Shown here one piece after another: positions 29,588 to 57,977 of a DNA stretch of 64,000 nt. Source of the stretch: Eledone cirrhosa (taxonomy: Eukaryota); assembly GCA_964016885.1 (NCBI GenBank), contig OZ024741.1, forward strand, positions 403,682,001 to 403,746,000. Reading direction: 5' to 3'. Position 1 is the stretch's first letter, and each line of letters opens with the position of its first letter. The notes below the pieces were generated by a model. It was not told where the DNA came from. It saw only the letters and a list, made by a program, of their open reading frames with translations, and searched no databases. A program made the translations under genes and the position numbers.

Positions 29588-29623
<36 letters not shown>

Positions 29624-29625
<2 letters not shown>

Positions 29626-32229
29626 ATATAGACATAGAATATTCGAAAATATTCTGTATGTTTATAATAAACATTTTGAAGACCTAATCGCTATAGAATA
29701 GAATACGTCACGTATTACAATTAGATTCTCGATAAAAGCAAGGGAAGTAAGTCTACGCGTTTCATTCTTGTTAGAATTCATCAGGACTACATATCCAGTG
29801 CTTTTATCGAGAATGACACAGCTAGAGACTTATAGAATACTTAGCTGTGTACAGGAACTGGTTTGAAAGAGCGGTTGCCGGTCCGGCAGAAATTAGAAAT
29901 TGGAATAAATGCTCTGAAATAGCGATATATATGTGAATATAGACATAGAATATTCGAAAATATTCTGTATGTTTATAATAAACATTTTGAAGACCTAATC
30001 GCTATAGAATAGAATACGTCACGTATTACAATTAGATTCTCGATAAAAGCAAGGGAAGTAAGTCTACGCGTTTCATTCTTGTTAGAATTCATCAGGACTA
30101 CATATCCAGTGCTTTTATCGAGAATGACACAGCTAGAGACTTATAGAATACTTAGCTGTGTACAGGAACTGGTTTGAAAGAGCGGTTGCCGGTCCGGCAG
30201 AAATTAGAAATTGGAATAAATGCTCTGAAATAGCGATATATATGTGAATATAGACATAGAATATTCGAAAATATTCTGTATGTTTATAATAAACATTTTG
30301 AAGACCTAATCGCTATAGAATAGAATACGTCACGTATTACAATTAGATTCTCGATAAAAGCAAGGGAAGTAAGTCTACGCGTTTCATTCTTGTTAGAATT
30401 CATCAGGACTACATATCCAGTGCTTTTATCGAGAATGACACAGCTAGAGACTTATAGAATACTTAGCTGTGTACAGGAACTGGTTTGAAAGAGCGGTTGC
30501 CGGTCCGGCAGAAATTAGAAATTGGAATAAATGCTCTGAAATAGCGATATATATGTGAATATAGACATAGAATATTCGAAAATATTCTGTATGTTTATAA
30601 TAAACATTTTGAAGACCTAATCGCTATAGAATAGAATACGTCACGTATTACAATTAGATTCTCGATAAAAGCAAGGGAAGTAAGTCTACGCGTTTCATTC
30701 TTGTTAGAATTCATCAGGACTACATATCCAGTGCTTTTATCGAGAATGACACAGCTAGAGACTTATAGAATACTTAGCTGTGTACAGGAACTGGTTTGAA
30801 AGAGCGGTTGCCGGTCCGGCAGAAATTAGAAATTGGAATAAATGCTCTGAAATAGCGATATATATGTGAATATAGACATAGAATATTCGAAAATATTCTG
30901 TATGTTTATAATAAACATTTTGAAGACCTAATCGCTATAGAATAGAATACGTCACGTATTACAATTAGATTCTCGATAAAAGCAAGGGAAGTAAGTCTAC
31001 GCGTTTCATTCTTGTTAGAATTCATCAGGACTACATATCCAGTGCTTTTATCGAGAATGACACAGCTAGAGACTTATAGAATACTTAGCTGTGTACAGGA
31101 ACTGGTTTGAAAGAGCGGTTGCCGGTCCGGCAGAAATTAGAAATTGGAATAAATGCTCTGAAATAGCGATATATATGTGAATATAGACATAGAATATTCG
31201 AAAATATTCTGTATGTTTATAATAAACATTTTGAAGACCTAATCGCTATAGAATAGAATACGTCACGTATTACAATTAGATTCTCGATAAAAGCAAGGGA
31301 AGTAAGTCTACGCGTTTCATTCTTGTTAGAATTCATCAGGACTACATATCCAGTGCTTTTATCGAGAATGACACAGCTAGAGACTTATAGAATACTTAGC
31401 TGTGTACAGGAACTGGTTTGAAAGAGCGGTTGCCGGTCCGGCAGAAATTAGAAATTGGAATAAATGCTCTGAAATAGCGATATATATGTGAATATAGACA
31501 TAGAATATTCGAAAATATTCTGTATGTTTATAATAAACATTTTGAAGACCTAATCGCTATAGAATAGAATACGTCACGTATTACAATTAGATTCTCGATA
31601 AAAGCAAGGGAAGTAAGTCTACGCGTTTCATTCTTGTTAGAATTCATCAGGACTACATATCCAGTGCTTTTATCGAGAATGACACAGCTAGAGACTTATA
31701 GAATACTTAGCTGTGTACAGGAACTGGTTTGAAAGAGCGGTTGCCGGTCCGGCAGAAATTAGAAATTGGAATAAATGCTCTGAAATAGCGATATATATGT
31801 GAATATAGACATAGAATATTCGAAAATATTCTGTATGTTTATAATAAACATTTTGAAGACCTAATCGCTATAGAATAGAATACGTCACGTATTACAATTA
31901 GATTCTCGATAAAAGCAAGGGAAGTAAGTCTACGCGTTTCATTCTTGTTAGAATTCATCAGGACTACATATCCAGTGCTTTTATCGAGAATGACACAGCT
32001 AGAGACTTATAGAATACTTAGCTGTGTACAGGAACTGGTTTGAAAGAGCGGTTGCCGGTCCGGCAGAAATTAGAAATTGGAATAAATGCTCTGAAATAGC
32101 GATATATATGTGAATATAGACATAGAATATTCGAAAATATTCTGTATGTTTATAATAAACATTTTGAAGACCTAATCGCTATAGAATAGAATACGTCACG
32201 TATTACAATTAGATTCTCGATAAAAGCAA
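29624..32229 (-). repeat. 311-bp hammerhead-ribozyme tandem array, inverted arm (8.4 units; ribozyme on the - strand)
   Basis: Period 311 (GTCCGGCAGA at 29881, 30192, 30503...). Reverse complement of the unit at 32230-35349. Confidence 0.95.
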
Positions 32230-35200
32230 TTATTCCAATTTCTAATTTCTGCCGGACCGGCAACCGCTCTTTCAAACCAGTTCCTGTACACAGCTAAGTA
32301 TTCTATAAGTCTCTAGCTGTGTCATTCTCGATAAAAGCACTGGATATGTAGTCCTGATGAATTCTAACAAGAATGAAACGCGTAGACTTACTTCCCTTGC
32401 TTTTATCGAGAATCTAATTGTAATACGTGACGTATTCTATTCTATAGCGATTAGGTCTTCAAAATGTTTATTATAAACATACAGAATATTTTCGAATATT
32501 CTATGTCTATATTCACATATATATCGCTATTTCAGAGCATTTATTCCAATTTCTAATTTCTGCCGGACCGGCAACCGCTCTTTCAAACCAGTTCCTGTAC
32601 ACAGCTAAGTATTCTATAAGTCTCTAGCTGTGTCATTCTCGATAAAAGCACTGGATATGTAGTCCTGATGAATTCTAACAAGAATGAAACGCGTAGACTT
32701 ACTTCCCTTGCTTTTATCGAGAATCTAATTGTAATACGTGACGTATTCTATTCTATAGCGATTAGGTCTTCAAAATGTTTATTATAAACATACAGAATAT
32801 TTTCGAATATTCTATGTCTATATTCACATATATATCGCTATTTCAGAGCATTTATTCCAATTTCTAATTTCTGCCGGACCGGCAACCGCTCTTTCAAACC
32901 AGTTCCTGTACACAGCTAAGTATTCTATAAGTCTCTAGCTGTGTCATTCTCGATAAAAGCACTGGATATGTAGTCCTGATGAATTCTAACAAGAATGAAA
33001 CGCGTAGACTTACTTCCCTTGCTTTTATCGAGAATCTAATTGTAATACGTGACGTATTCTATTCTATAGCGATTAGGTCTTCAAAATGTTTATTATAAAC
33101 ATACAGAATATTTTCGAATATTCTATGTCTATATTCACATATATATCGCTATTTCAGAGCATTTATTCCAATTTCTAATTTCTGCCGGACCGGCAACCGC
33201 TCTTTCAAACCAGTTCCTGTACACAGCTAAGTATTCTATAAGTCTCTAGCTGTGTCATTCTCGATAAAAGCACTGGATATGTAGTCCTGATGAATTCTAA
33301 CAAGAATGAAACGCGTAGACTTACTTCCCTTGCTTTTATCGAGAATCTAATTGTAATACGTGACGTATTCTATTCTATAGCGATTAGGTCTTCAAAATGT
33401 TTATTATAAACATACAGAATATTTTCGAATATTCTATGTCTATATTCACATATATATCGCTATTTCAGAGCATTTATTCCAATTTCTAATTTCTGCCGGA
33501 CCGGCAACCGCTCTTTCAAACCAGTTCCTGTACACAGCTAAGTATTCTATAAGTCTCTAGCTGTGTCATTCTCGATAAAAGCACTGGATATGTAGTCCTG
33601 ATGAATTCTAACAAGAATGAAACGCGTAGACTTACTTCCCTTGCTTTTATCGAGAATCTAATTGTAATACGTGACGTATTCTATTCTATAGCGATTAGGT
33701 CTTCAAAATGTTTATTATAAACATACAGAATATTTTCGAATATTCTATGTCTATATTCACATATATATCGCTATTTCAGAGCATTTATTCCAATTTCTAA
33801 TTTCTGCCGGACCGGCAACCGCTCTTTCAAACCAGTTCCTGTACACAGCTAAGTATTCTATAAGTCTCTAGCTGTGTCATTCTCGATAAAAGCACTGGAT
33901 ATGTAGTCCTGATGAATTCTAACAAGAATGAAACGCGTAGACTTACTTCCCTTGCTTTTATCGAGAATCTAATTGTAATACGTGACGTATTCTATTCTAT
34001 AGCGATTAGGTCTTCAAAATGTTTATTATAAACATACAGAATATTTTCGAATATTCTATGTCTATATTCACATATATATCGCTATTTCAGAGCATTTATT
34101 CCAATTTCTAATTTCTGCCGGACCGGCAACCGCTCTTTCAAACCAGTTCCTGTACACAGCTAAGTATTCTATAAGTCTCTAGCTGTGTCATTCTCGATAA
34201 AAGCACTGGATATGTAGTCCTGATGAATTCTAACAAGAATGAAACGCGTAGACTTACTTCCCTTGCTTTTATCGAGAATCTAATTGTAATACGTGACGTA
34301 TTCTATTCTATAGCGATTAGGTCTTCAAAATGTTTATTATAAACATACAGAATATTTTCGAATATTCTATGTCTATATTCACATATATATCGCTATTTCA
34401 GAGCATTTATTCCAATTTCTAATTTCTGCCGGACCGGCAACCGCTCTTTCAAACCAGTTCCTGTACACAGCTAAGTATTCTATAAGTCTCTAGCTGTGTC
34501 ATTCTCGATAAAAGCACTGGATATGTAGTCCTGATGAATTCTAACAAGAATGAAACGCGTAGACTTACTTCCCTTGCTTTTATCGAGAATCTAATTGTAA
34601 TACGTGACGTATTCTATTCTATAGCGATTAGGTCTTCAAAATGTTTATTATAAACATACAGAATATTTTCGAATATTCTATGTCTATATTCACATATATA
34701 TCGCTATTTCAGAGCATTTATTCCAATTTCTAATTTCTGCCGGACCGGCAACCGCTCTTTCAAACCAGTTCCTGTACACAGCTAAGTATTCTATAAGTCT
34801 CTAGCTGTGTCATTCTCGATAAAAGCACTGGATATGTAGTCCTGATGAATTCTAACAAGAATGAAACGCGTAGACTTACTTCCCTTGCTTTTATCGAGAA
34901 TCTAATTGTAATACGTGACGTATTCTATTCTATAGCGATTAGGTCTTCAAAATGTTTATTATAAACATACAGAATATTTTCGAATATTCTATGTCTATAT
35001 TCACATATATATCGCTATTTCAGAGCATTTATTCCAATTTCTAATTTCTGCCGGACCGGCAACCGCTCTTTCAAACCAGTTCCTGTACACAGCTAAGTAT
35101 TCTATAAGTCTCTAGCTGTGTCATTCTCGATAAAAGCACTGGATATGTAGTCCTGATGAATTCTAACAAGAATGAAACGCGTAGACTTACTTCCCTTGCT

Positions 35201-35343
35201 TTTATCGAGAATCTAATTGTAATACGTGACGTATTCTATTCTATAGCGATTAGGTCTTCAAAATGTTTATTATAAACATACAGAATATTTTCGAATATTC
35301 TATGTCTATATTCACATATATATCGCTATTTCAGAGCATTTAT

Positions 35344-35349
<6 letters not shown>
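32230..35349 (+). repeat. 311-bp hammerhead-ribozyme tandem array, sense arm (10 units + 10 bp); candidate non-LTR retrozyme
   Basis: Starts and ends with TTATTCCAAT and is followed by (TA)n. Each unit has CTGATGA...GAAAC GC GTA. Confidence 0.93.
32324..32413 (+). ncRNA. Type I hammerhead ribozyme (first of 10 + strand copies; 8 more complete copies on the - strand)
   Basis: Stem I GTAGTC/GAC(T)TAC, extended through an internal loop by a perfect 16-bp ATTCTCGATAAAAGCA/TGCTTTTATCGAGAAT helix. Core CTGATGA (32354-60), stem II ATTCT-AACA-AGAAT, GAAA, palindromic minimal stem III ACGCGT. Predicted GUA cleavage after 32384. Confidence 0.9.
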
Positions 35350-35382
<33 letters not shown>

Positions 35383-35972
35383 GTTAGAGAAGCAAAAAGT
35401 TGCTTATTGTGATCCAGTTTTTGGTTAAGAAAGCCAGTTTCATGAATGGTTTCAACGTACGGTTAGGGGTAACTCTACAAGTTTCTAAGAATTCCGTTCA
35501 ATCTTGGAGTATAAAGTATAAAAGAGAAAACACAGGTAAGCATTAAGAGAAGGATTTTATCCAGGTATTTACGACCGTTTCATTGGTAAGTGCAACCTTA
35601 TATTGCTATACTGCAAATAGCAGCCACTCAATTATAATTGTTGTTCACAGTCCAAATTTTCAAAATAGTAAGTTACTCTTGAAATAATTCTTAATATATA
35701 GAGAAAAATATTTATTTGGAATTGTATTTACTAGTATAGAGAGAGAGGGATCAGGGGGTGAGGGGACAGACGGCATAGTATAGAGAGAGAGGAAGGGGGA
35801 AGAGGTAGGAAGTAGAGTGACAAACTGAGATGGAGGGAGGGGTAGAGGTAGAAGGATTCCTTGGTCAGTTTTGATAGCAGACTTCATGTCTGGAGTGTAG
35901 TGAGTTAAAGAGAATTAAATAGATAATAGTGGGAGGGATGGATAGAGAGGGAGAGAGAGAGAGAGAGGGGGG

Positions 35973-36015
<43 letters not shown>

Positions 36016-36295
36016 ACATTAATATCTTTATCTTTATTTTATATATATATATATATATATATAAAATAAAGATAAAGATAATAATGACAAAAATAAAAGC
36101 AAAGAAGGGGGTGAGAAAGAAGAAAAGAAAAGATAGCCAAGAAGGGGAGGGAAGGAAGGAAGAAAACGAAGAAATAGAAGAGGAATGAGTGTGAAGAGGG
36201 AGATATATGTGTTGGTTTTGTGGGTAATTAAAGGGTTTAGATATAAGAGGGTATAAAGTCTAAGTATATGCAGTTTGTCAGTTGGTAGTAAGAGG

Positions 36296-37987
36296 TTAAG
36301 GGTTCGATTTGTAGTGCGAAAACTTCTCTTTGAGTCTATGGTTACAATAAATTGATCTCTCGATTTTATTGTTGAGTAACCTATTCTTCGAACTTAAGAT
36401 GTGGAACAGCTCAAGGTCACATAATCGACAGCTTCTCATACCACTCCGATATGGGGGCGCGTTTGATAATTTTTTCCACTTCAGGGTGTATTGATGGTTA
36501 CTTTCTCTCAGTTGCCAGGTCTTGTTTGCAAGGGTAGTTACATAACGGTGCTGGGAATGTTTCATTGCGTAACGGTGTGTATACCAACGGGCTTTAAATG
36601 TATTCCCAGTCGCTCCGATGTAATACCATTTCTGGTTGTCTGATTCCACTGTGCATTGGTAAACCAGGTTAGACTGCATGCATTCATTTTGTAATGGACA
36701 GGTTTCAGGTAGGTGGCAGTTACATTTCTTGTCATGGGCAACTTTGGCATTATTTGTGGGCTGCGATGCCTGAATAAGTGTGTTACGTTTTGTTTGCCTA
36801 TTAGCGGGTGGTTGTGTATTAGATATTCTGTTGTGTTCGGTGGTAATTGTATTGTTATTGTTGTAAATCTGTGTTTTGGTGTTGTTATGTATCTTTTTAG
36901 CGTTAAGCATCTTAATGTGTGCCTTTATATTTGGTGCCGTGGAGTAAGATAGTCTAATAGATTTAGTGTTAAGGATTTTGCTGTATCTATGTGAGTCTGG
37001 GAAGTGCTTATTTATTATTCTAAAGAAAGTAGAGGGTAAGTTAGTACTAATAGAGGTGTTAAATATGGGGTTATACCAAATATATTTTCTACTGCGTGAC
37101 TTTGATTTCGATGTTGTATTTCTATTTGTCGTATACTTTGCAGTTCTATGCGTAAATGTGTGTATGCGTGTGTTTCTGGAGTTTGTGTTATGCGTGCTCG
37201 TGTGCGCTTCACGGAGGCTTTCATCTATATATTCTACTCTATCTAAGTGGCATGCCTTGTCTAATGCGGTATTGTAGTATTCTGTATGTTCTTCGAAGAT
37301 TTGTCGGTTAGACGAGAGGCGGGAGATCCTAAGGCATATGCTGCGTGGAATGGATTTAATTATTGATAGTGGGTGGTTTGAGTTACAGTTGATGTATGCT
37401 AAGTTTTCATTAATCCTGTGAAAAGGTCTTATAAGTCCCGTATTTAGGTTAAGCGTCACATCTAGAAAGTTAACTGTTTTAGTGCTATACTCATACGTTA
37501 TGCTAAGGCCTAGTTTTCCGAGAGTCTTTCTAATATTCTTACGGAGTCTTTCTATGCTCTGGTTATTTAGGCTCTTAACTAGGAGAAGAGCGTCGTCTCT
37601 GTAGATTCCACCGTGAAGGTCGCTAAACTCGGTGTGTAAACTATGGGCTATGTAAATTCCTACTAAGTCTGTGACTTGAGCCGAGTCGTTAGTCCCCATC
37701 GTGATGTCGAAGTTATTTAATCTATCCTTACGTTCCCAGTAGGCGTTTTCAAATTTAATTATTGTTTTCCTAGCGGTTAATATGATTTTTATCTCGTCGT
37801 CTGTTATGTCAGAATTGGCTTTGGCGAATGCTAAGGCTTTATCCAAGGTGTTGGGGGATATAGATGAGTAATAATCGTTAATGTCAAATTGTATGAATTT
37901 AGATACTTCTTTGTTAGCTATATTGTTAAACCACTTAATTGTTTCGGTAGCGTTACCCAATAGTTTAATGACTAGTTTATTCTTCAT
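36296..37987 (-). CDS. Penelope-like RT + C-terminal GIY-YIG endonuclease (reading frame stays open upstream to ~38100)
   Basis: RT motifs QFDINDYYSSI, ITMG, GIYRDDALL and VNFLDVTLNL. CNC...CPL...C linker, then LVYQCTV...YYIGATGNTFKARWYTH and CRLCDLE. The in-frame upstream segment reads FKDHKVNF..PTIRLICPSKSDIGKISK. Confidence 0.9.
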   Translation of the reverse strand: MKNKLVIKLLGNATETIKWFNNIANKEVSKFIQFDINDYYSSISPNTLDKALAFAKANSDITDDEIKIILTARKTIIKFENAYWERKDRLNNFDITMGTNDSAQVTDLVGIYIAHSLHTEFSDLHGGIYRDDALLLVKSLNNQSIERLRKNIRKTLGKLGLSITYEYSTKTVNFLDVTLNLNTGLIRPFHRINENLAYINCNSNHPLSIIKSIPRSICLRISRLSSNRQIFEEHTEYYNTALDKACHLDRVEYIDESLREAHTSTHNTNSRNTRIHTFTHRTAKYTTNRNTTSKSKSRSRKYIWYNPIFNTSISTNLPSTFFRIINKHFPDSHRYSKILNTKSIRLSYSTAPNIKAHIKMLNAKKIHNNTKTQIYNNNNTITTEHNRISNTQPPANRQTKRNTLIQASQPTNNAKVAHDKKCNCHLPETCPLQNECMQSNLVYQCTVESDNQKWYYIGATGNTFKARWYTHRYAMKHSQHRYVTTLANKTWQLRESNHQYTLKWKKLSNAPPYRSGMRSCRLCDLELFHILSSKNRLLNNKIERSIYCNHRLKEKFSHYKSNP

Positions 37988-38075
37988 TTGTGCTAACCCT
38001 CTGTCTAATATATGTTTACTAATTTTCCCAATGTCCGATTTGGACGGGCATATAAGTCTAATTGTGGGGTTATAA

Positions 38076-38471
38076 TCAAAATTTACCTTGTGGTCCTTGA
38101 AGGTTAAATGTGGGGGTACATGGCCTAAGTGGCTCCGTTCTGTCCTCTATTCCTAGGTGTTTGACTATATTGTGTGCCTCGTTGTTGATGTTTATCAGTG
38201 CCGCCTCATTTGTTTTTTTGTATTTCCTATGTAATTCCTTCCGTATGAAGCTATTGTAGGTATTAACATCCATCGTATACACATTTGAGGTTTTGTCCGC
38301 TTTGACAATAATTCCATTGGTGGTTCGCAGCTTTTTTAGGAATGTATTTATGTCATTCTGGAGTTTATTATTCCTCCGCTTTTTGAATTTGATATTCATA
38401 ATCATCTTCAGTAAGTCTTGTTCAAAGGAGGTCATGTATGTATACATGCAATATAAGGTTGCACTTACCAA
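38076..38471 (-). pseudogene. Frameshifted upstream part of the same Penelope ORF
   Basis: SFEQDL..IMNIKF and IIVKADKTSNVYTM, the (P/K)ADK motif that precedes PLE RT. The first few codons derive from the inverted pLTR. Confidence 0.82.
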
Positions 38472-38535
38472 TGAAACGGTCGTAAATACCTGGATAAAAT
38501 CCTTCTCTTAATGCTTACCTGTGTTTTCACTCTTA

Positions 38536-38859: not shown

Positions 38860-41252
<2,393 letters not shown>

Positions 41253-41253
<1 letters not shown>

Positions 41254-41805
41254 TGGTTACACAACAGTTAGTTCACCATACCGAGAACAATTGTTTCACC
41301 TTAGCGGATCCTCAGCTCGTAATGGACATGGTTATGCGGAACAGGAAGGACAACCGTACGAACGCGCATGCGCAGAAACCGTCACTTCACACAGGCAATA
41401 CTAAAAACCGTGCGAGAGGTGTAAGGGAGATAACTGCGAAAGTCCGAAAAGTTTCTAGTTGATAAGAAAATTAGGATGTTGTGATACAAAGCTCCGGATT
41501 GAATCACAACATCCTAATTTTCTTATCAACTAGAAACTTTTCGGACTTTCGCAGTTATCTCCCTTACACCTCTCGCACGGTTTTTAGTATTGCCTGTGTG
41601 AAGTGACGGTTTCTGCGCATGCGCGTTCGTACGGTTGTCCTTCCTGTTCCGTATAACCATGTCCATTACGAGCTGAGGATCCGCTAAGGTGAAACAATTA
41701 TTGTCGGTATGGTGAACTAACTGTTGTGTAACCACATCTACCTAACTCGTCCCATGGACTGAGTGCTCTACCACTACGGATATTACCTTCCAGTGTTCTA
41801 CCACT
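41253..41805 (+). mobile_element. Fold-back hammerhead mini-element (pLTR-only, Penelope-type): ~235-bp inverted arms plus a 70-bp 3' extension, between TA runs
   Basis: 41253-41485 is the reverse complement of 41503-41735. The left arm (- strand) reads CGAG-CTGAGGA-TCCGCTAAGGT-GAAAC-AATT-GTT-CTCG. Confidence 0.8.
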
Positions 41806-42419: not shown

Positions 42420-43287
42420 TATAATACAGTTCGTCAGAATTTACTAAATCGTATCCCAAAAGCAAGATACTATGGTCTGCTGATTGATTCGACCCCTGAC
42501 GAGGCGCACCGAGAACAACTGTCAAGAGTTGTGCGATATGTCGATGTTGATTTCAATATGAAGACGGTCGTTGTGAGGGAATCTTTTCTTGGATTCATTC
42601 AAGTAATCAAAAAAGATGCCGCAAGCCTTGTTGAAACAATCGTGAAAGAGCTAGAAAAAGATGACCTACCACTGCATAACCAATACCGAAATTACTGAGG
42701 ACGTCGAGGTGGCTGCCAGAAAAGAGATAGAGAGAGCAATGCAAAGTTCACTCAATCGTCTTCAAACAGAAATGGAAGAGCGGTTTATTCAACTTAAGGA
42801 AACCGACTCAAGTTTTGGCTTTCTTCTTGATGTCAACTATCTGTTTTATTTGGCTGCTCCTGATAACCTTGTCCTTAAACAAAGGTGCAACAGTCTTGCG
42901 AAACTATACAACTCCGATATCGACAGAGAGCAATTGTATGAGGAAATCTTGGACTGCCGATCTTTGCTGGCTACTAGGACAGGTGACCCAATTTTAAAGC
43001 CGGAGGCACTTCTCCAATTCATCATACAATACGGCGATGAATGTGTTTTTCCCAATTTACGAATCAGCATTCAAATAATGTTGACGATTTCTATTTCAAT
43101 TGGCAGTTATGAGAGGTCGTTCAGAAAGCTAAAGCTAAAACATTCGTGTTTGCGAACTTCAATGGACCAACAACGGCTGACTGACCTCGCCCTTTTGAGT
43201 GTAGAAATCGAAGAGTTTGAACGAACTGATTTCGAGGAAATTACCAACCAGTTTGCCTCATTAAAAGCCCGAAAAATCAAGTTGTAA
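42420..43287 (+). pseudogene. Internally deleted hAT transposase (ZMYM1/hAT-type; C-terminal dimerisation domain)
   Basis: YYGLLIDSTPDEAHREQLSRVVRYV (first catalytic D region) at ~42468-42545 is joined out of frame to ORF 42661..43287, which contains FPNL...ERSFRKLKL...LRTSMDQQRLTDLALLSVE. Confidence 0.88.
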
Positions 43288-50788: not shown

Positions 50789-53700
50789 CTATAGTCTGAT
50801 GTAGAGTGAAGGTCCATTCACACGGGCCATTCTCGCCACTTTCACCCATCTTTCATAAAAACGGCTGGGGTGCAGCACCTCTCTCTCCATCCTGATCCTT
50901 CTTCCGAAATGATATCGGAAGGAACGGACCAGTTGTTGGCCAGAGAGAAAGGTGTCTGACCTCAGTCCTTTCAGACGCGTCCACCATACAACCTCTTTCG
51001 CCATGGCTATTACGCACAGAAACACCGCCTCTTCTTCGTTTTTGAAGAGGGGAGGCGGCTTGATCGTTACAATAGACTCGGTGGTCAACCGGATCGGTCC
51101 CACCCTTGACAGCAGTTGTTCGACATAGCCCCACAGATCGGCAATGCCTGAGCAGTGTACCAATGCGTGTGCAACGGTTTCCTCGTCGCACACGCATCTG
51201 GGACAGATCTTTTTCGAGGGGTCCCTACCCGGGCGCCCGTGTCTGTAGAGCCTTTCTCGAACGGGCAGAGCCCTTCTGTAACATTGCCAGGCCAGGGACC
51301 TCTGGAAATTATCCATGGGTCCCGGGCTGAATGTCCTACCGAACAGGTTTGCCAGTTCGTCTTCCTCCATCCCTAGGGCTTCTCCGAGGGCGTCGTCGCA
51401 CCTGCTAACCACCATCCCTCTATAGACGAGGTGGATTCTCCACTGACAGCCGGGTCCGCCTGCCAGAGAGCCGTGAGCGCCTGGGCACACTCGGTGTGCC
51501 AGGCTCCCAGTTTTCTCGGTCTTTGCTTGACCCAGGATTGCAGCTCGGTGAGTGAGACGAGTCTGGGAAAGGCTCGCCTCACAAACGGGGCCCACACCGG
51601 TTGACCGGAGAGGAATACCTGAAGGTGCCGTAGCCTTAATGCGTGTTTACGTATCATTAGCCACGGCATCCCCAGCCCTCCTTTCGAAGGGTGTTGACAG
51701 CAGATGGATCTTCTCACCATAGGAGCCCGCTTCTTCCAAAGGAAATGGAAGAGTGCGCGCTCCATTTTGGCGTGCGTTTCCCTTGGGTAAGGCACAACGG
51801 TCAGCCGGTAGTAGATGACGGACGCTATATAAGTGTTCGCCACCTCCGCCCGACCTTTCAGGGACAGTTTGCACTCGGCCCACTTCTGGGTCAGTGCAAA
51901 CACCCTGTTCGTTACCTCACCCCAGTTCTTCTCCACCTGGAGGTCTGGTCCGAACCAGACGCCGAACAACTTCACCGGGCCCTGCGTCCAGCGCCCGACG
52001 ACGCCATCGGAGGGCATCGATCTGCCCCTCCACGTGCCGAGTTGCAGACCGATCGACTTGTCCCGGTTCAGCTTAGCCCCTGTAAACCTTTCGTACTCCT
52101 CCAGTAAGGTGCCGATCGCCCCGATTTCCGAGGCCGTCGACACCATTACTGTTACGTCATCGGCGTAGGCTGACACCGCTTTCCGCAATCCCGGTTCCAA
52201 CGGGATGCGCTGCAACAACTCCAACTTCCGCAGCAGTGGTTCTAGAGTCATTACATACAGAAGGGAGGAGAGAGGGCACCCCTGTCGGATGGACCGCGCG
52301 ATTTCGAACGGCTCCGAGAGGTAGCCGTTCACCTTGACCCTAGAGCAGATGCGGCTGCTGTGCATGGCATTGATCCAGCCCCTGAAAACGGGTCCGAAGC
52401 CTGCCGCCGCTAGCACCGCATCCAGGTAAACATGGTCGACCCTATCGAATGCCTTAGATTGATCCAAGTTGATCAGGGCCCCACCAAAGCCGGGTTCGTT
52501 CCCAACCCTCTCTATGATGTATCGCATGAGGTGGAGGTTGTCGTGGATGGACCTGGACGGGATAGCACATGTCTGCGCATCTCCCACCAGGTTGCCCACG
52601 ACAAGCGCCAACCTCTTTGCTAGCACCTTGGCCAAAATCTGTAACTCTGTATTTAGCAGAGTTATGGGCCTGAAATTATTTATATCGTCCCCCTTGTTCT
52701 CGTCCTTCCTCACTAGCGTGACTACGCCCTTGGTCACAGCACAGGGAATTCTCCCGTTCTGTTGCCAGTTGCAGTAGACCGCCTCGAGGAGATCGGGGAA
52801 CAAGTCCGGCATAGCTAGATATAGTTCGTATGGAAGACGATCGAGACCCGGGGATTTGCGTTTGCCGCATTGGCTCAGCACGTCCTCTATCTCAGCGGCT
52901 GAAATCGGCTCCTCGCAGGACTTCGCCTCCCTGTCCGAGAGACGCGACAGGCCGTCGAGGTATGGACCGAAGTCCACATCCCCAACAGGCCCCCCGCCCC
53001 TTCCGAACAATCCGGCAAAGTGCTTCTGAAAAGCCTCGCACATCTGATTAGGTTCAAGGATCACCCGTCCATCCTGGTCTCGCAAAGACCGGATAGTGGA
53101 TCTGCTCCCTCTTTTGGCTTCTGTCACGCGGGCCCAGCTAACAGCTTCGGTCCCCTCGTTTCCCAGAACACGTATTTTGCTTCGGACGATGCAGCCTTCG
53201 TGTTTCGCGTCGAAGAATTGGCCCAGGGCCGTTCTCGACGCTAGCACTCTGGCCACGTCACCGCTTCTAATTGCCTCTTCTACACTATCTACCAACTTCC
53301 TTTCCTTCCTATTTCTATTTGAGGCTAACTCCTTACTAAATTCTATAGAGTCTACTCTAATCTCTCTTTTGAGAGATCCCCACCACCTGCTGTTGACGAT
53401 GGCGCCCGTCAACCACTCCTTAACTAAAGTGCTAATCCGGTCCCTGTAAGCCTTACTTGCCGGTAAGGACAAGTTGAGCTTCCAGTAACCGGGTCCCTGT
53501 CTATGAGTTCTGTCAAGGTTGACCATGCAGGTCACTAACTTGTGGTCTGAATAGCCAACCATGCGCATTTTTGGACAACTTAAAAAGTCCTTATCCTTAA
53601 TTCTAACTAAGAACCTATCTAGGTACGACCTAGATGATCCGCTACGATTTTCCCAAGTCCAGATTGGCGCAGTCGGAAAATCTAGTCGATATCTATCGGC

Positions 53701-54246
53701 CAGGTCAAATCGACCGATTAACCCTTTGAGGCTATTACACCCCTCTCTATCGGGACAGGCCCCTACGTAGTCCCAGCGTGCATCTGGGATACCATTCCAG
53801 TCCCCCACTAATAGCAAGGAGCGGGACGTCCCTAGAAAAGTCTCCAGACGATGGAAGAAGTCCGGTCGCATTGACCCGAATGGGCCGTAGGCGGCTACCA
53901 ACCTAAACGCTCCGCCTTTACCACTGCCAAGGTCCAGAACCACTAGTCGACCCTCCGGGTCCAAATGTACCATCTGTGTTGCGAGACCCAGATGTTTTTG
54001 CAGCAGAACGACAACTCCACCCCCACCTCCGGGCTGACAGAGAGATGCATGCATCTCAAAGTCATCAAAGGTGGGGGCCAGCTGTCGCACGTTGCTGATC
54101 CGGGCCTCGCAAATAACCATCACATCTATACGTTGTGACCTGAGGTCATTTAGAAGCATTGCTTGCTTCCAAGTTGAGCCCAGGCCACGCGCATTTAAAC
54201 AGCCTACTCTTAGCATAGCCATGTTGGTGGTGAAGAGAAAAGGCAC
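50789..54246 (-). pseudogene. Tx1-like ORF2 (APE endonuclease, RT, C-terminal CCHC), one frameshift near 51415
   Basis: APE motifs CLNARGL, LLVGDWN, SYLDRF and SDH. RT motifs KSPGLD, FRPITLLN, LDQSKAFDRVDH, RQGCPLS and YADD. Zn finger CPRC...ETVAHALVHC. The frameshift is evident against the intact frame in the 56536..57815 copy. Confidence 0.93.
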
Positions 54247-55877
54247 TTACCTCTCTGCGTCCCGGGTATCGGGCTGCACAATTTCCATTAGGGTGGGGGA
54301 TGGGTTGTTGGGTGGGGTGGTGGTTTGTGGAAGTGTAGGGGCATCAGTGTGTTGTGTGGTTGGGGAGTTTGGAGTTGTGTGGGTGTTTGGGGAGGGGGTG
54401 AGGTAGTTTTTTAGGAGGACGCGGTTAATGGGCCCGACGCAGGGGTGACCCACGTCCTCTTTAAAATTGTTTTTTAAAGTTTTATAGGTGTCCTGTGGGG
54501 CCTTAATCATTTTGAGGTGGGGGAAATCCCCTGCCTGGGTGAAGTTAGGCCCTTGTGTTTTTATTAGATTGTTGTTGTACACAATGTTTAACAGTTTTTT
54601 GTTTCTTGTGTTTATGTATGTGTATGCATGTTTTTGTTTTTGTGTGGTGTTTTTTGTTTGCTGTTGTTGTGAGCTCTTTTGTGTTGGTGTCAGTGTTATG
54701 TTTTGGGGAGGGGTTGTTTTCATTTGTGTGTCTGAGGTGTGTTTTTTTTCTTTCTTTTGATTGTGTGGAAGTGCTCCTCCTCGTCTGACGACGAACTAGG
54801 GTCATCTTCCGCGTTGGAGGGGAAGGGTATATTTTCGGGTTGTGTTTGCGGTGCGGGTGTTTTGGAAATTGTTTTTGTTTTTTGAGTGGAGGGGATGGGT
54901 TGGACATTGTTTTGTTTTGGTTTGAGCTGTGGTGGTTGTTTTTGTAGTGGTAGTTGTGGTGATTGTGTTGGTTGTGCAGTTGTTGGTGGTGTAGGCAGGA
55001 TTGGGGCTTTCTTATTAAGTTGGGGACAGACAGCCCTCAGGTGACCTCTGGTTCCGCAGAGGTAACACGAGGGCCGCCTACCCTCAACGGTAATGTTGAT
55101 GAAAGTTAGATCATCCAGTATGACGCGTTCAGGGATCTGGGCGATCCTTTCGGGCCTCATTTGAACTACAAGTTCGAGGCTCGTTCCACTGAGCGCGTCA
55201 CCCGATGCCTTTCCCATGGACACCAGCGTGTCATTATCCAGGTTCAGGAAACCTGTCAAAACCCACCATATGTCCATAATCGGTGTGGATTTTTATTTTT
55301 TGTGTTCTTCTACCCATGTACGTAGAGTAGAAGGTGTATGCGGTGGATGTGATTGGTTTGATGGACAGTTTCACTGCTGTGTCCCTGTCCTTCATGAGAA
55401 TGGATAGACTCCCGTAGAGTCTATCCTTCTGAATGAAGGTGATGTCCTTCATGACGTCTTTTAAAACCAGCTCTATCTCACTCTGTGATGGTTGAGCTGG
55501 TTTTTTGCTTTTATTCGAGATTGTCCTAAACATGACAGTGTTTAGGAGTCTCTGGCTTTTTAGTTCCGGGGAGGGGGGGGATGGATCGTGAATGAACCAT
55601 TTTCCCCGTACACTATATATTTTTTGGCATCTGCCAGTAGCTCCTTCGCTTTGGTTATATCTACTGGCAGATAGTCGAGGGTTTTCCTTGCCGTCTCGGC
55701 GAAGGAGAAATTTTTTTTGTTTGTGTTGCTGTTGTAGTTGGTGGTGTTGTTGTTATCATTGTTGTTGTTGTCACAGTTATTGGTCTTGTTGTTGTTATTG
55801 TTATTGGTGTTGTTTTCGTCCGTCGCATTGTTGTTGTTGCTGTTGCTGGTGCCGCTGGTTTTTTGGGTTGTTGCCAT
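54247..55877 (-). pseudogene. Tx1-like ORF1 (gag-like), split into 4 ORF pieces by frameshifts
   Basis: Consecutive ORFs 55560..55877, 55234..55533, 54720..55277 (VEGRRPSCYLCGTRGHLRAVCP, CX2CX4HX4C) and 54247..54723, ending immediately before ORF2. Confidence 0.85.
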
Positions 55878-56271
55878 GGCAACGTCAAGTTGTCGGTTAA
55901 CAGGTGGAGAAAATCCTTCCTCTGGCTAACCTTTCTTTTTGAAATCTGCTACTGTGACAGTGGCAGGGGGAAGCTGTAAGCTTATCTTCCCCTTTCCTCC
56001 TTCGAATTTTGGTGAAGATGCTTCAGCCATTTTTAAAAAAATAGGATTTTTCGAAATATTAAATGTTTACGACACTATTTCGCCTAAAGGCGTAGAATAT
56101 TTTGAGAGACTGACCAGATCAAAATTTGACCTGGCAGTCCCTCTACAAAATGGTACAAAAATGAAAGTTTACAGTTCACAATTTCCAGTTAAATTTAAAC
56201 GAAACTTACCGAGCGAGCTCAGCACATGTGTCCATCGTAAAGAGATAGATAAGAAAGTGTATAGATAGATA

Positions 56272-57815
56272 TATTTCTTTTATTTGCCACTAGGGCATCA
56301 AAAGTGGGACAAGTACAAAGGGGGGAGTTTACACAAAAAGGCGTCCTCAATAAGGAGAAGGCAATAACAAAATATAAAAATAAAATAAGATATAACAAAA
56401 AATAAAATTTTTAACAAAATCCTCAATAGAGAGGAGGCGCCTTGGGGGGTCGCACACACCCCCGAAAAAAGTGTGCAACCCTTCTCCTCAGGAGCACAGA
56501 GAAGGGGTGCTCCCTTGGTCTTTTATCTTCCTCACCTATAGTCTGATGTAGAGTGAAGGCCCATTCACACGGGCCATTCTCGCCACTTTCACCCATCTTT
56601 CATAGAAACGGCTGGGGTGCAGCACCTCTCTCTCCATCCTGATCCTTCTTCCGAAATGATATCGGAAGAAACGGACCAGTTGTTGGCCAGAGAGAAAGGT
56701 GCCCGACCTCAGTCCTTTCAGACGCGTCCACCATACAACCTCTTTCGCCATGGCTATTACGCACAGAAACACCGCCTCTGCTTCATCTTTGAAGGGGGGA
56801 GGCGGCTTGATCATTACAATCGACTCGGTGGTCAACCGGATCGGTCCCACCCTTGACAGCAGTTGTTCGACATAGCCCCACAGATCGGCTACGCCCGAGC
56901 AGTGTACTAATGCGTGTGCAACGGTTTCCTCGTCGCACACGCATCTGGGACAGATCTTTTTGGCGGGGTCCCTACCCGGGCGCCCGTGTCTGTAGAGCCT
57001 TTCTCGAACGGGTAAAGCCCCTCGGTAGCACTGCCAGGCCAGGGACTTCTGGAAGTTGTCCATAGGTCCCGGGCTGAATGTCCTACCGAACAGGCTGGCC
57101 AGTTCGTCCTCCTCCATGTCTAGGGCTTCTCCGAGGGCGTCGTCGCACCTGCTGCGTACCAGCCCTCTATAGAATGTTGCGGTGGAGTCTCCACTGATAA
57201 CCGGATCCGCCTGCCAGAGGGCGGTGAGCGCCTGGGCACACTCAGTGTGCCAGGCGCCCAGTTTTCTCGGTCTTTGCTTGACCCAGGATTGCAGCTCGGT
57301 GAGTGAGACGAGTTTGGGAAAGGTTCGTCTCACAAACGAGGCCCACACCGGTTGTCCGGTGAGGAATACGTAGAGGTGCCGTAGCCTTAATGCGTGTTTA
57401 CGCATCATTAGCCACGGCATCCCCAGCCCTCCTTTCGAAGGGTGTTGACAGCAGATGGATCTCCTCACCATAGGAGCCCGCCTCTTCCAAAGGAATTGGA
57501 AGAGCGCGCGCTCCATCTTGGTGAGGGTTTCCCTTGGGCAGGGCACTACGGTCAGGCGGTAGTAGATGACGGACGCTATGTAGGTGTTCGCCACCTCCGC
57601 CCGACCTTTCAGGGATAGTTTGCAACTGGCCCACTTCTGGGTCAGTGCAAACACCCTGTTCGTAACCTCCGCCCAGTTTTTCTCCACCTGGAGGTCCGGT
57701 CCGAACCAGACCCCGAGCAACTTCACCGGGCCCTCCGTCCAGCGTCCGACGACGCTATCGGAGGGCATCGGTCTGCCCCTCCACGTGCCGAGTTGCAAAC
57801 CGATCGACTTGTCCC
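56272..57815 (-). mobile_element. 5'-truncated second Tx1-like copy, head-to-tail with the full-length copy
   Basis: Closely similar but not identical to 50522-52065. The uninterrupted ORF2 C-terminus lies in ORF 56536..57897, whose first ~27 aa come from flanking repeat. Confidence 0.93.
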
Positions 57816-57977
57816 GAGATAGAGACGGAGAAAGAGGGAGTAGAAAAAGGAGAGAGTAGAAAGTAGATAGAGAGAGTAGGGAGAGAGACACACACATACA
57901 CCACTCATATATTTATACATGATATATACACTAATACGTATTCTGTTTGCAATTTTGCGCACAGAATAATATGAGTA

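Follow-up and report, generated by a model that had tools for sequence, protein, structure and literature searches.

Head-to-head hammerhead retrozyme arrays in Eledone cirrhosa carry an insertion signature resembling that of Penelope-like elements

Animal retrozymes that lack long terminal repeats (non-LTR retrozymes) are described as low-GC, non-coding tandem units of 150-450 bp, with a type I hammerhead ribozyme and a short palindromic stem III in every unit (PMC7229834; Li et al. 2026, 10.64898/2026.07.22.740005). The same features are present in the element examined here, a 311-nt unit arrayed head-to-head in a 64-kb stretch of the Eledone cirrhosa genome (contig OZ024741.1, positions 403,682,001 to 403,746,000; hereafter the window). 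Rolling-circle reverse transcription of retrozymes, with help from Penelope-like elements (PLEs), was hypothesised by Cervera and de la Pena 2020 (PMC7229834), and Li et al. 2026 argued for a PLE origin of retrozymes from co-occurrence and trees; the words 'tail' and 'orientation' are absent from the latter text, and 'inverted' occurs in a reference only. According to the accessible text of a 2020 review (PMC7761336), retrozyme repeats hold no motif pointing to a helper element, in contrast to the end rule reported below, which does point to one. Unlike the present family, the accounts of animal non-LTR retrozymes in Li et al. 2026 and the accessible text of PMC7229834 describe no two-arm insertions, two fixed ends or single-haplotype arrays. 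No description of two-armed retrozyme insertions was found elsewhere in the literature covered, from which supplements, the model figure of PMC7229834 and subscription papers were outside scope; the accessible part of PMC12910113 held nothing relevant to such insertions.

On the side of insertion, the closest described systems are the endonuclease-bearing PLEs (PMC3846280 and PMC8557442, in their accessible text; PMC11167929), which, like the arrays described here, have an inverted, 5'-truncated copy placed head-to-head, a tail of 30-40 nt on one side, targets that are AT-rich or consist of (TA)n, joins at microhomology and a hammerhead upstream of the tail. The present family differs from these in having no open reading frame (ORF) and in that both arms are long multimers of one 310-nt unit. 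The head-to-head repeats with a one-sided tail were described by Arkhipova et al., who proposed self-priming (PMC3846280, accessible text), and Craig et al. listed (TA)n targeting and called the origin of the PLE inverted repeats and tail unresolved (PMC8557442, accessible text). The PLE protein studied in vitro by Frangieh et al. (PMC11167929) is predicted to form a dimer. It prefers AT-rich DNA, both strands of which it nicks and extends, and it initiates at two neighbouring internal positions of the RNA, the genomic tail being the interval between them. Non-autonomous Chlamys elements such as MRC1 belong to a clade without canonical hammerheads, and no two-arm end rule is given for them in the accessible text of PMC8557442. 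The class of element, the non-LTR retrozyme, is already known, as is the head-to-head plus tail form for coding PLEs; the combination of that form with a strict end rule and single-haplotype multimers in a retrozyme is new as far as searched.

The array in the window comprises two bluntly joined arms, with 8.38 copies of the unit on the minus strand followed by 10.03 copies on the plus strand, and no mismatches. Its layout is as follows, all positions here and below referring to the 64-kb window and u denoting the position within the unit, where u1 is 32230.

29590..29621: left (TA)n tract, target site
29624..32229, minus strand: arm A, 8.38 identical units, 2,606 nt, with the RNA-sense 3' end outward, at site A
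32229..32230: head-to-head junction, blunt, joining unit positions 168 and 1, without mirror symmetry
32230..35349, plus strand: arm B, 10.03 identical units, 3,120 nt, with the 3' end at site B (unit position 10)
32230..32540, plus strand: one 311-nt unit, predicted RNA monomer or circle
32472..32511, plus strand: A+U-rich hairpin immediately 5' of site A, from fold prediction
32515..32524, plus strand: site A, unit 286-295, putative first reverse-transcription start
35315..35349, plus strand: 26-35-nt 'tail' between sites A and B, at the plus-arm end only
35348..35382: right (TA)n tract, target site

The outer end of arm A corresponds to unit position 285, or to 295 if one mismatch at 29623 is tolerated, and the (TA)n on both sides of the array masks any target-site duplication. 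The predicted A+U-rich hairpin may be an enzyme-binding site. The unit has a G+C content of 34% and is non-coding, the longest open frame in a trimer being 59 amino acids. No LTR-like architecture was seen, although no search for a primer-binding site or polypurine tract was made. A preliminary description of the array had reported about 8.4 and then 10 identical units on opposite strands, 18 hammerhead units, a non-coding repeat and (TA)n flanks, all of which are borne out, the hammerhead cores numbering 8 in the minus arm and 10 in the plus arm. Its classification as a non-LTR hammerhead retrozyme is also upheld, by the low-G+C, non-coding tandem unit of 311 or 310 nt and the type I hammerhead with covarying stems, as is its view of a recent insertion. 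The idea of a singular insertion event was not supported, the array form being the norm in a family of about 1,000 loci. The array is genuine, and belongs as a very young member to a large family of retrozymes.

Family size was determined by counting exact sequence patterns in the element's own genome (3.0 Gb). A mid-unit 30-mer gave 16,487 matches and the window's own core variant 1,148; most units are 310 nt long, the 311-nt form representing a minority subfamily. The site-B end abutting TA was matched exactly 1,041 times, and site-A ends 605 times on the forward strand (the reverse count is inflated by overlapping matches). The copies are dispersed and recently mobile, as judged from the unit and site-B counts, and the family is estimated at 1,000-1,300 loci. 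A census was then assembled from 109 stretches, all from contig C1 (plus the window), with L038 omitted on account of its overlap with L039 and one duplicate block dropped. Nine stretches were picked by core match, 81 in order from the site-B list and 15 for a site-A end without an exact B partner, the last 4 completing the mid-unit list. The resulting 112 blocks consisted of 90 complete two-armed insertions, 13 complete single-armed insertions, one four-part insertion, 7 blocks cut by the stretch edge or by N, and one fragment of a sister family.

Each of the 90 two-armed insertions that are complete runs minus-then-plus, with RNA-sense 3' ends outward, and in every one of them one end is at site A and the other at site B (AA 0, BB 0). 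Site A spans u286-295, and site B is mostly u10 with some ends at u11-17, giving an interval of 26-35 nt. Since picks selected by their ends dominate the sample, the 18 clusters among the first 100 mid-unit matches, chosen regardless of ends, were considered separately; 14 were two-armed, all with one A and one B end, 3 were single-armed and 1 was cut by N. (TA)n lies beside both ends in 73 of 73 two-armed insertions tested, although one end was usually selected for (TA)n and site A itself contains TA repeats. Features of a PLE-type insertion are present: an inverted, 5'-truncated copy head-to-head (90/90), a one-sided tail and an AT-rich or (TA)n target. The insertion pattern matches the PLE 'tail' and the two reverse-transcription start sites known from in vitro work, and the one-A, one-B rule links the element with PLE enzymes. 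On this insertion signature, the mover of the family is very probably a PLE enzyme. The rule goes beyond the data of Frangieh et al., in which the two strands showed no difference in start site (PMC11167929). Separately, one locus (L031, 4343-4520) has a four-part junction with a short re-duplicated piece, which suggests repeated template jumping while the ends were joined.

The hammerhead occupies the following positions in the first unit of the plus arm.

32325-32339 with 32398-32412, plus strand: 15-bp inverted repeat closing the hammerhead domain
32348..32391, plus strand: type I hammerhead, first of ten on this arm
32354-32360, 32361-32374 and 32375-32378, plus strand: hammerhead core, stem-loop II and GAAA
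32378-32383, plus strand: palindromic stem III, with the predicted cut after 32384

In unit positions, these correspond to u125-131 (core), u132-145 (stem-loop II), u146-149 (GAAA) and u149-154 (stem III), with cutting predicted after u155. The complete type I hammerhead read from the window alone stood, with a small correction. The core, GAAA, palindromic stem III, GUA site and cut position are all as placed, but for stem II comparison favours a 10.1-11.1 pair followed by 3 bp and a 6-nt loop over a 5-bp helix with a 4-nt loop. The Infernal search with Rfam models that had been suggested as a check gave no gathering-level hit in the window, Hammerhead_HH9 alone matching, at 32339-32405 (17.8 bits, E 0.16). 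The folding stability of the unit exceeds that of 100 of 100 shuffled versions (z = -5.0). Fixed ribozyme variants within the family fall at N7, position 10.1, loop II and stem I positions at which wobble pairing is kept, and 12 core positions are without any fixed variant (p 0.03), which, taken alone, is modest evidence. Covariation across families is a stronger test. A motif pattern with free stems, in which C or U at position 3 and G or A at position 8 were allowed independently, was run against the same genome and gave 1,136 matches, versus 0 on a reversed-sequence control. Among 79 distinct motifs from this and related families, positions 3 and 8 are C-G in 61, U-A in 18 and mixed in none, and stems I and II covary, with at least three pair types at most positions. 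The U3-A8 swap is on record as a natural hammerhead variant in the accessible text of PMC4209133. The majority state at the base of stem II in the family is a U-U pair (U10.1-U11.1), the unit in the window having A10.1-U11.1. An axolotl retrozyme with U-U at this position reportedly shows weak cleavage in monomeric form and improved cleavage as a dimer (PMC7229834, accessible text). Hammerhead activity is accordingly predicted for the unit on comparative grounds, and the element is almost certainly a functional-type hammerhead retrozyme.

Variation among units was examined as a record of the template. Across 982 units, 166 single-unit differences were found (5.4e-4 per base), and the 90 insertions of at least three units resolve into 35 haplotypes, with 83 of the 90 lacking any partly shared variant. 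Six variants private to one sampled locus are each fixed in 8-24 units and are present in both arms. Since a new variant can fill both arms only by way of a monomer that is then re-amplified, these fixed private variants indicate that a monomer was re-amplified. Both inverted arms are multimeric in 56 of the 90 insertions, and share the locus haplotype. The earlier proposal of rolling-circle re-amplification is supported as the likeliest source of the identical units, haplotypes varying between loci while both arms of a locus are fixed for one haplotype. The cut site does not act as a stop for the arms, with 5 inner arm ends at unit 150-162 against 7.5 expected, and no ligation scar was found there (4 differences in 995 passes). 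The simplest reading of the multimers is rolling-circle reverse transcription of a closed monomer, and the balance of evidence leans towards an RNA circle as the direct template. Fixed changes on the sense strand comprise 9 A>G and 3 T>C (p 0.04; 10 and 3 in a second count; p 0.06 against the single-unit spectrum), recurrent on several haplotypes, which hints, but only hints, at A-to-I editing of the template.

The course of events that is somewhat favoured is that a Penelope-like enzyme nicked both (TA)n strands and reverse-transcribed one predicted RNA circle repeatedly from each nick. By analogy with tested retrozymes, an existing array would be transcribed, its hammerheads would cut the transcript to monomers, and a host ligase would close them. 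A dimer of a PLE reverse transcriptase (RT) with a GIY-YIG domain would bind the circle near the hairpin that precedes site A and nick both (TA)n strands. Each 3'-OH would then act as a primer, starting at site A on one strand and at site B on the other, with AT microhomology available at either site. Both RTs would continue around that one circle, completing anything from 0.2 to more than 30 turns, after which blunt joining or short microhomology would unite the two free cDNA ends into a head-to-head array that has the tail on one side; a single priming nick would give a single-arm insertion.

Several observations weigh against this scheme. The sample comprises contig C1 and the window, and 96 of its 109 stretches were picked by one end. 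At L101 (3095-9496), exactly two units at the outer end of each arm belong to one haplotype and the units inside them to another, and no second copy of the L101 junction was found genome-wide. This locus, the most telling single clue to what the template was, supports in-register copying of both arms, and is accounted for better by a linear RNA of mosaic make-up, or by a template switch made jointly, than by one circle; gene conversion from a donor carrying the junction was rejected, the junction occurring once in the genome. Partly shared variants at L050, L051, L061 and L073 point to later DNA-level exchange. Mirror-symmetric insertions number 6 of 90 against 1.6 expected (p 0.004), and the two breakpoints lie within 10 nt of one another in 13 insertions against 6 expected. 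From published work, one of nine retrozyme dimers showed cleavage in Li et al. 2026, and in vitro hammerhead cleavage was unnecessary for insertion, with no difference in start site between strands (Frangieh et al., PMC11167929). Finally, a coding partner sharing the ends of the unit was not found at 30 + 30 loci of two PLE families, in a genome with many more PLE families, nor was there any ORF link within 1.5 kb at 30 loci each of a related hammerhead family (7,717 matches) and of sister families (4,568 matches).

Dual priming by a PLE enzyme could alternatively have used a linear multimeric RNA, either an uncleaved array transcript or a concatemer formed by a rolling circle at the RNA level. 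The in-register mosaic of L101 with its unique junction, the six mirror-symmetric insertions and a weak correlation of arm lengths (rho 0.32), itself as expected if both arms are made together, would all suit such a template, as would the finding that unprocessed RNA is the main substrate in vitro (PMC11167929). Plain array transcripts, on the other hand, have no means of bringing a new variant to fixation across 8-24 units in both arms, the arms would shorten with each generation, the 35 fixed haplotypes require a monomer bottleneck and re-amplification, and there is no surplus of arm ends at the cut site. The concatemer version escapes these objections and is indistinguishable from a circle in these data. 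Overall, a linear multimer is regarded as a possible but rather doubtful template.

The origin of the inverted arm was approached through the inner breakpoints. Arm A has a median length of 986 nt and reaches 4,229 nt at most, and arm B a median of 1,176 nt and at most 8,459 nt; a further arm, incomplete because cut, exceeds 9,495 nt. Arm A is the longer in 39 and arm B in 44 of the 90 insertions. The distance between the inner breakpoints of the two arms fits a uniform distribution (KS p 0.48), and 76 of 76 junction pairs tested differ from one another. Junctions show 0-6 nt of overlap in 53 insertions, longer overlap in 19 and extra bases in 18. Inner breakpoints that are mostly independent, together with arms of which either may be the longer, argue against a strand switch and for priming from both nicked strands, and dual priming of both target strands is considered likely. 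In L1 twin priming, both nicked target strands likewise prime cDNA and the products are joined by microhomology, the starts lying in the poly(A) tail of a linear mRNA and at an internal site that varies. In the present family, by contrast, both starts are fixed, 26-35 nt apart and without poly(A), and the arms cover the same sequence repeatedly. The preliminary description had instead attributed the inverted arm to a strand switch. On this view a single primed cDNA would fold back or change strand and be copied into the second arm, which comes close to the self-priming model in the accessible text of PMC3846280. The excess of mirror-symmetric insertions, and the 19 junctions that overlap by more than 6 nt at self-complementary sites, would be explained by such a step. 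Nevertheless, 84 of the 90 insertions fail the prediction of hairpin copying (mirror symmetry, with the second arm no longer than the first), either arm may be several units the longer, and the outer ends are always two different fixed sites. Fold-back is therefore largely refuted as a general route and judged very improbable, although the six mirror-symmetric insertions may represent a minor fold-back or common-stop class.

Expansion at the DNA level, which Li et al. 2026 (10.64898/2026.07.22.740005) put forward, would have short PLE-type insertions later expanded and homogenised by unequal crossing-over or gene conversion, with no rolling circle. Periodic or partial variants at L050, L051 and L073 are of the kind that this would leave behind. 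It is nonetheless highly improbable, given that both inverted arms are multimeric in most insertions with a locus haplotype common to both, that the youngest loci, the window array included, are already long and without differences, and that a PLE-type family with the same two-end rule in the same genome has no multimers in its first 100 matches. Assembly artefact can be practically dismissed: although the exact unit count is taken from the assembly, about 1,000 loci have distinct flanks, distinct junctions and locus-specific haplotypes, and the independent run X1 contains the unit at a depth of 1-3e5, where the main variants recur and loose (TA)n ends occur at site A.

A possible partner for the dual-priming reaction was sought beside the array, where the following features are located.

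35383-38530, minus strand: 5'-truncated PLE-like element, the 3' end of which abuts the same (TA)n tract as the array
36296-38146, minus strand: PLE-like ORF, 950 bp right of the array, no Pfam hit

The Atlas clusters nearest to this ORF carry HTH_animal, RVT_1 and GIY-YIG on some members, and we take its product to be an RT with a C-terminal GIY-YIG-like motif. The family to which it belongs has at least 70 related copies, the best at 81-96% identity. Neither it nor a second PLE family (30 loci of each) was found to have any end sequence in common with the unit. No sampled insertion continues into an ORF or coding body, the arms consisting of the unit only, and the layout of an autonomous PLE, with an RT and GIY-YIG ORF between pseudo-LTRs, was not seen, the 5' ends of complete single-arm insertions abutting simple repeats. 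The same pairing of array and PLE-like element occurs at L036.

Related hammerhead families in the same genome were compared also. A second retrozyme family (L097, L100, L181-L200) has a unit of 466 nt, 7,828 core matches and arrays of up to 31 units; of 20 insertions examined, all 13 that were two-armed have their own A and B ends about 70 nt apart, the other 7 being single-armed, very short-armed, interrupted or cut. The dispersed family L201-L230 (7,717 matches) has a very similar core and stem II, with two 3' ends 68 nt apart, but no multimers among its first 100 matches, indicating that the end rule alone does not create tandems. Many of its 5' ends fall immediately ahead of the core and are preceded by a pyrimidine tract with AG, resembling a splice acceptor. 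In older sister families (L044, L075, L109, L112, L119, L231-L260; 4,568 tail matches), which are 67-80% like the unit, the tail region is kept, those inspected have the same two ends, and the hammerheads occur in C3-G8 and U3-A8 forms with longer stems III. A third tandem hammerhead family, with a period of about 460-500 nt, is present at L043 (3700-7130) as six minus cores followed by one plus core, the ends being separated, as judged by eye, by about 130 nt.

At least half of the words of the unit are contained in 20 of the 24 runs listed (18 organism labels), among which there is no run recorded as RNA. In X1, 609 contigs carry the unit. In X4, X5, X6, X7 and X12 it forms a single contig of 331-340 nt at a depth of 7-365, and in X8 a single contig of 280 nt at a depth of 5, whereas no match occurred among 12.8 million raw Hi-C reads of organism E, about 1% of run X23. 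Horizontal transfer is not claimed, trace contamination by a 16,000-copy repeat explaining the run matches equally well. The low-depth, unit-length contigs in X4-X8 and X12, which bear other organism labels, may reflect contamination, a shared element or a free RNA circle.

The enzyme that moves animal retrozymes, and the copying of a circle, have so far rested on co-occurrence and sequence kinship. Countable evidence on the retrozyme mover and on the origin of the PLE repeat and tail is provided by a young family of about 1,000 loci in which the end rule is strict, breakpoints are mostly independent and arms are of single haplotype. The 310-nt unit, for which two start sites are predicted, also offers a substrate for the PLE assay that already exists in vitro. 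Whether the arrays are direct genomic footprints of a PLE cycle on circular ribozyme RNA, in which a dimer would prime on the two target strands, using one dedicated site for each, and its two RTs would travel round a shared circle, is evenly poised. Were this so, PLE inverted repeats and tails would arise by obligatory dual priming, and the 'satellites' of animal retrozymes would be born full-length in one step as multi-kilobase palindromes, their variation stemming from the RNA stage. Perfect palindromes on the kilobase scale would thereby be seeded across the genome, amounting to about 5 Mb here, and a natural RT would copy a small RNA circle into chromosomal DNA, which would be relevant to RNA-templated insertion tools.

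Elsewhere in the window, a 36-bp satellite of about 560 copies occupies 1-20144 and is followed by a 34-bp array up to 20774. The C-terminal remnant of a hAT transposase (PF05699) lies at 42655-43287, and two copies, one of them partial, of a non-LTR retrotransposon with AP-endonuclease and RT domains (Exo_endo_phos and RVT_1) lie at 50789-57912 on the minus strand. A head-to-head pair of a different, minimal hammerhead-like motif with a palindromic stem III is present at 41315 (minus) and 41673 (plus), adjoining (TA)n at 41212-41251.

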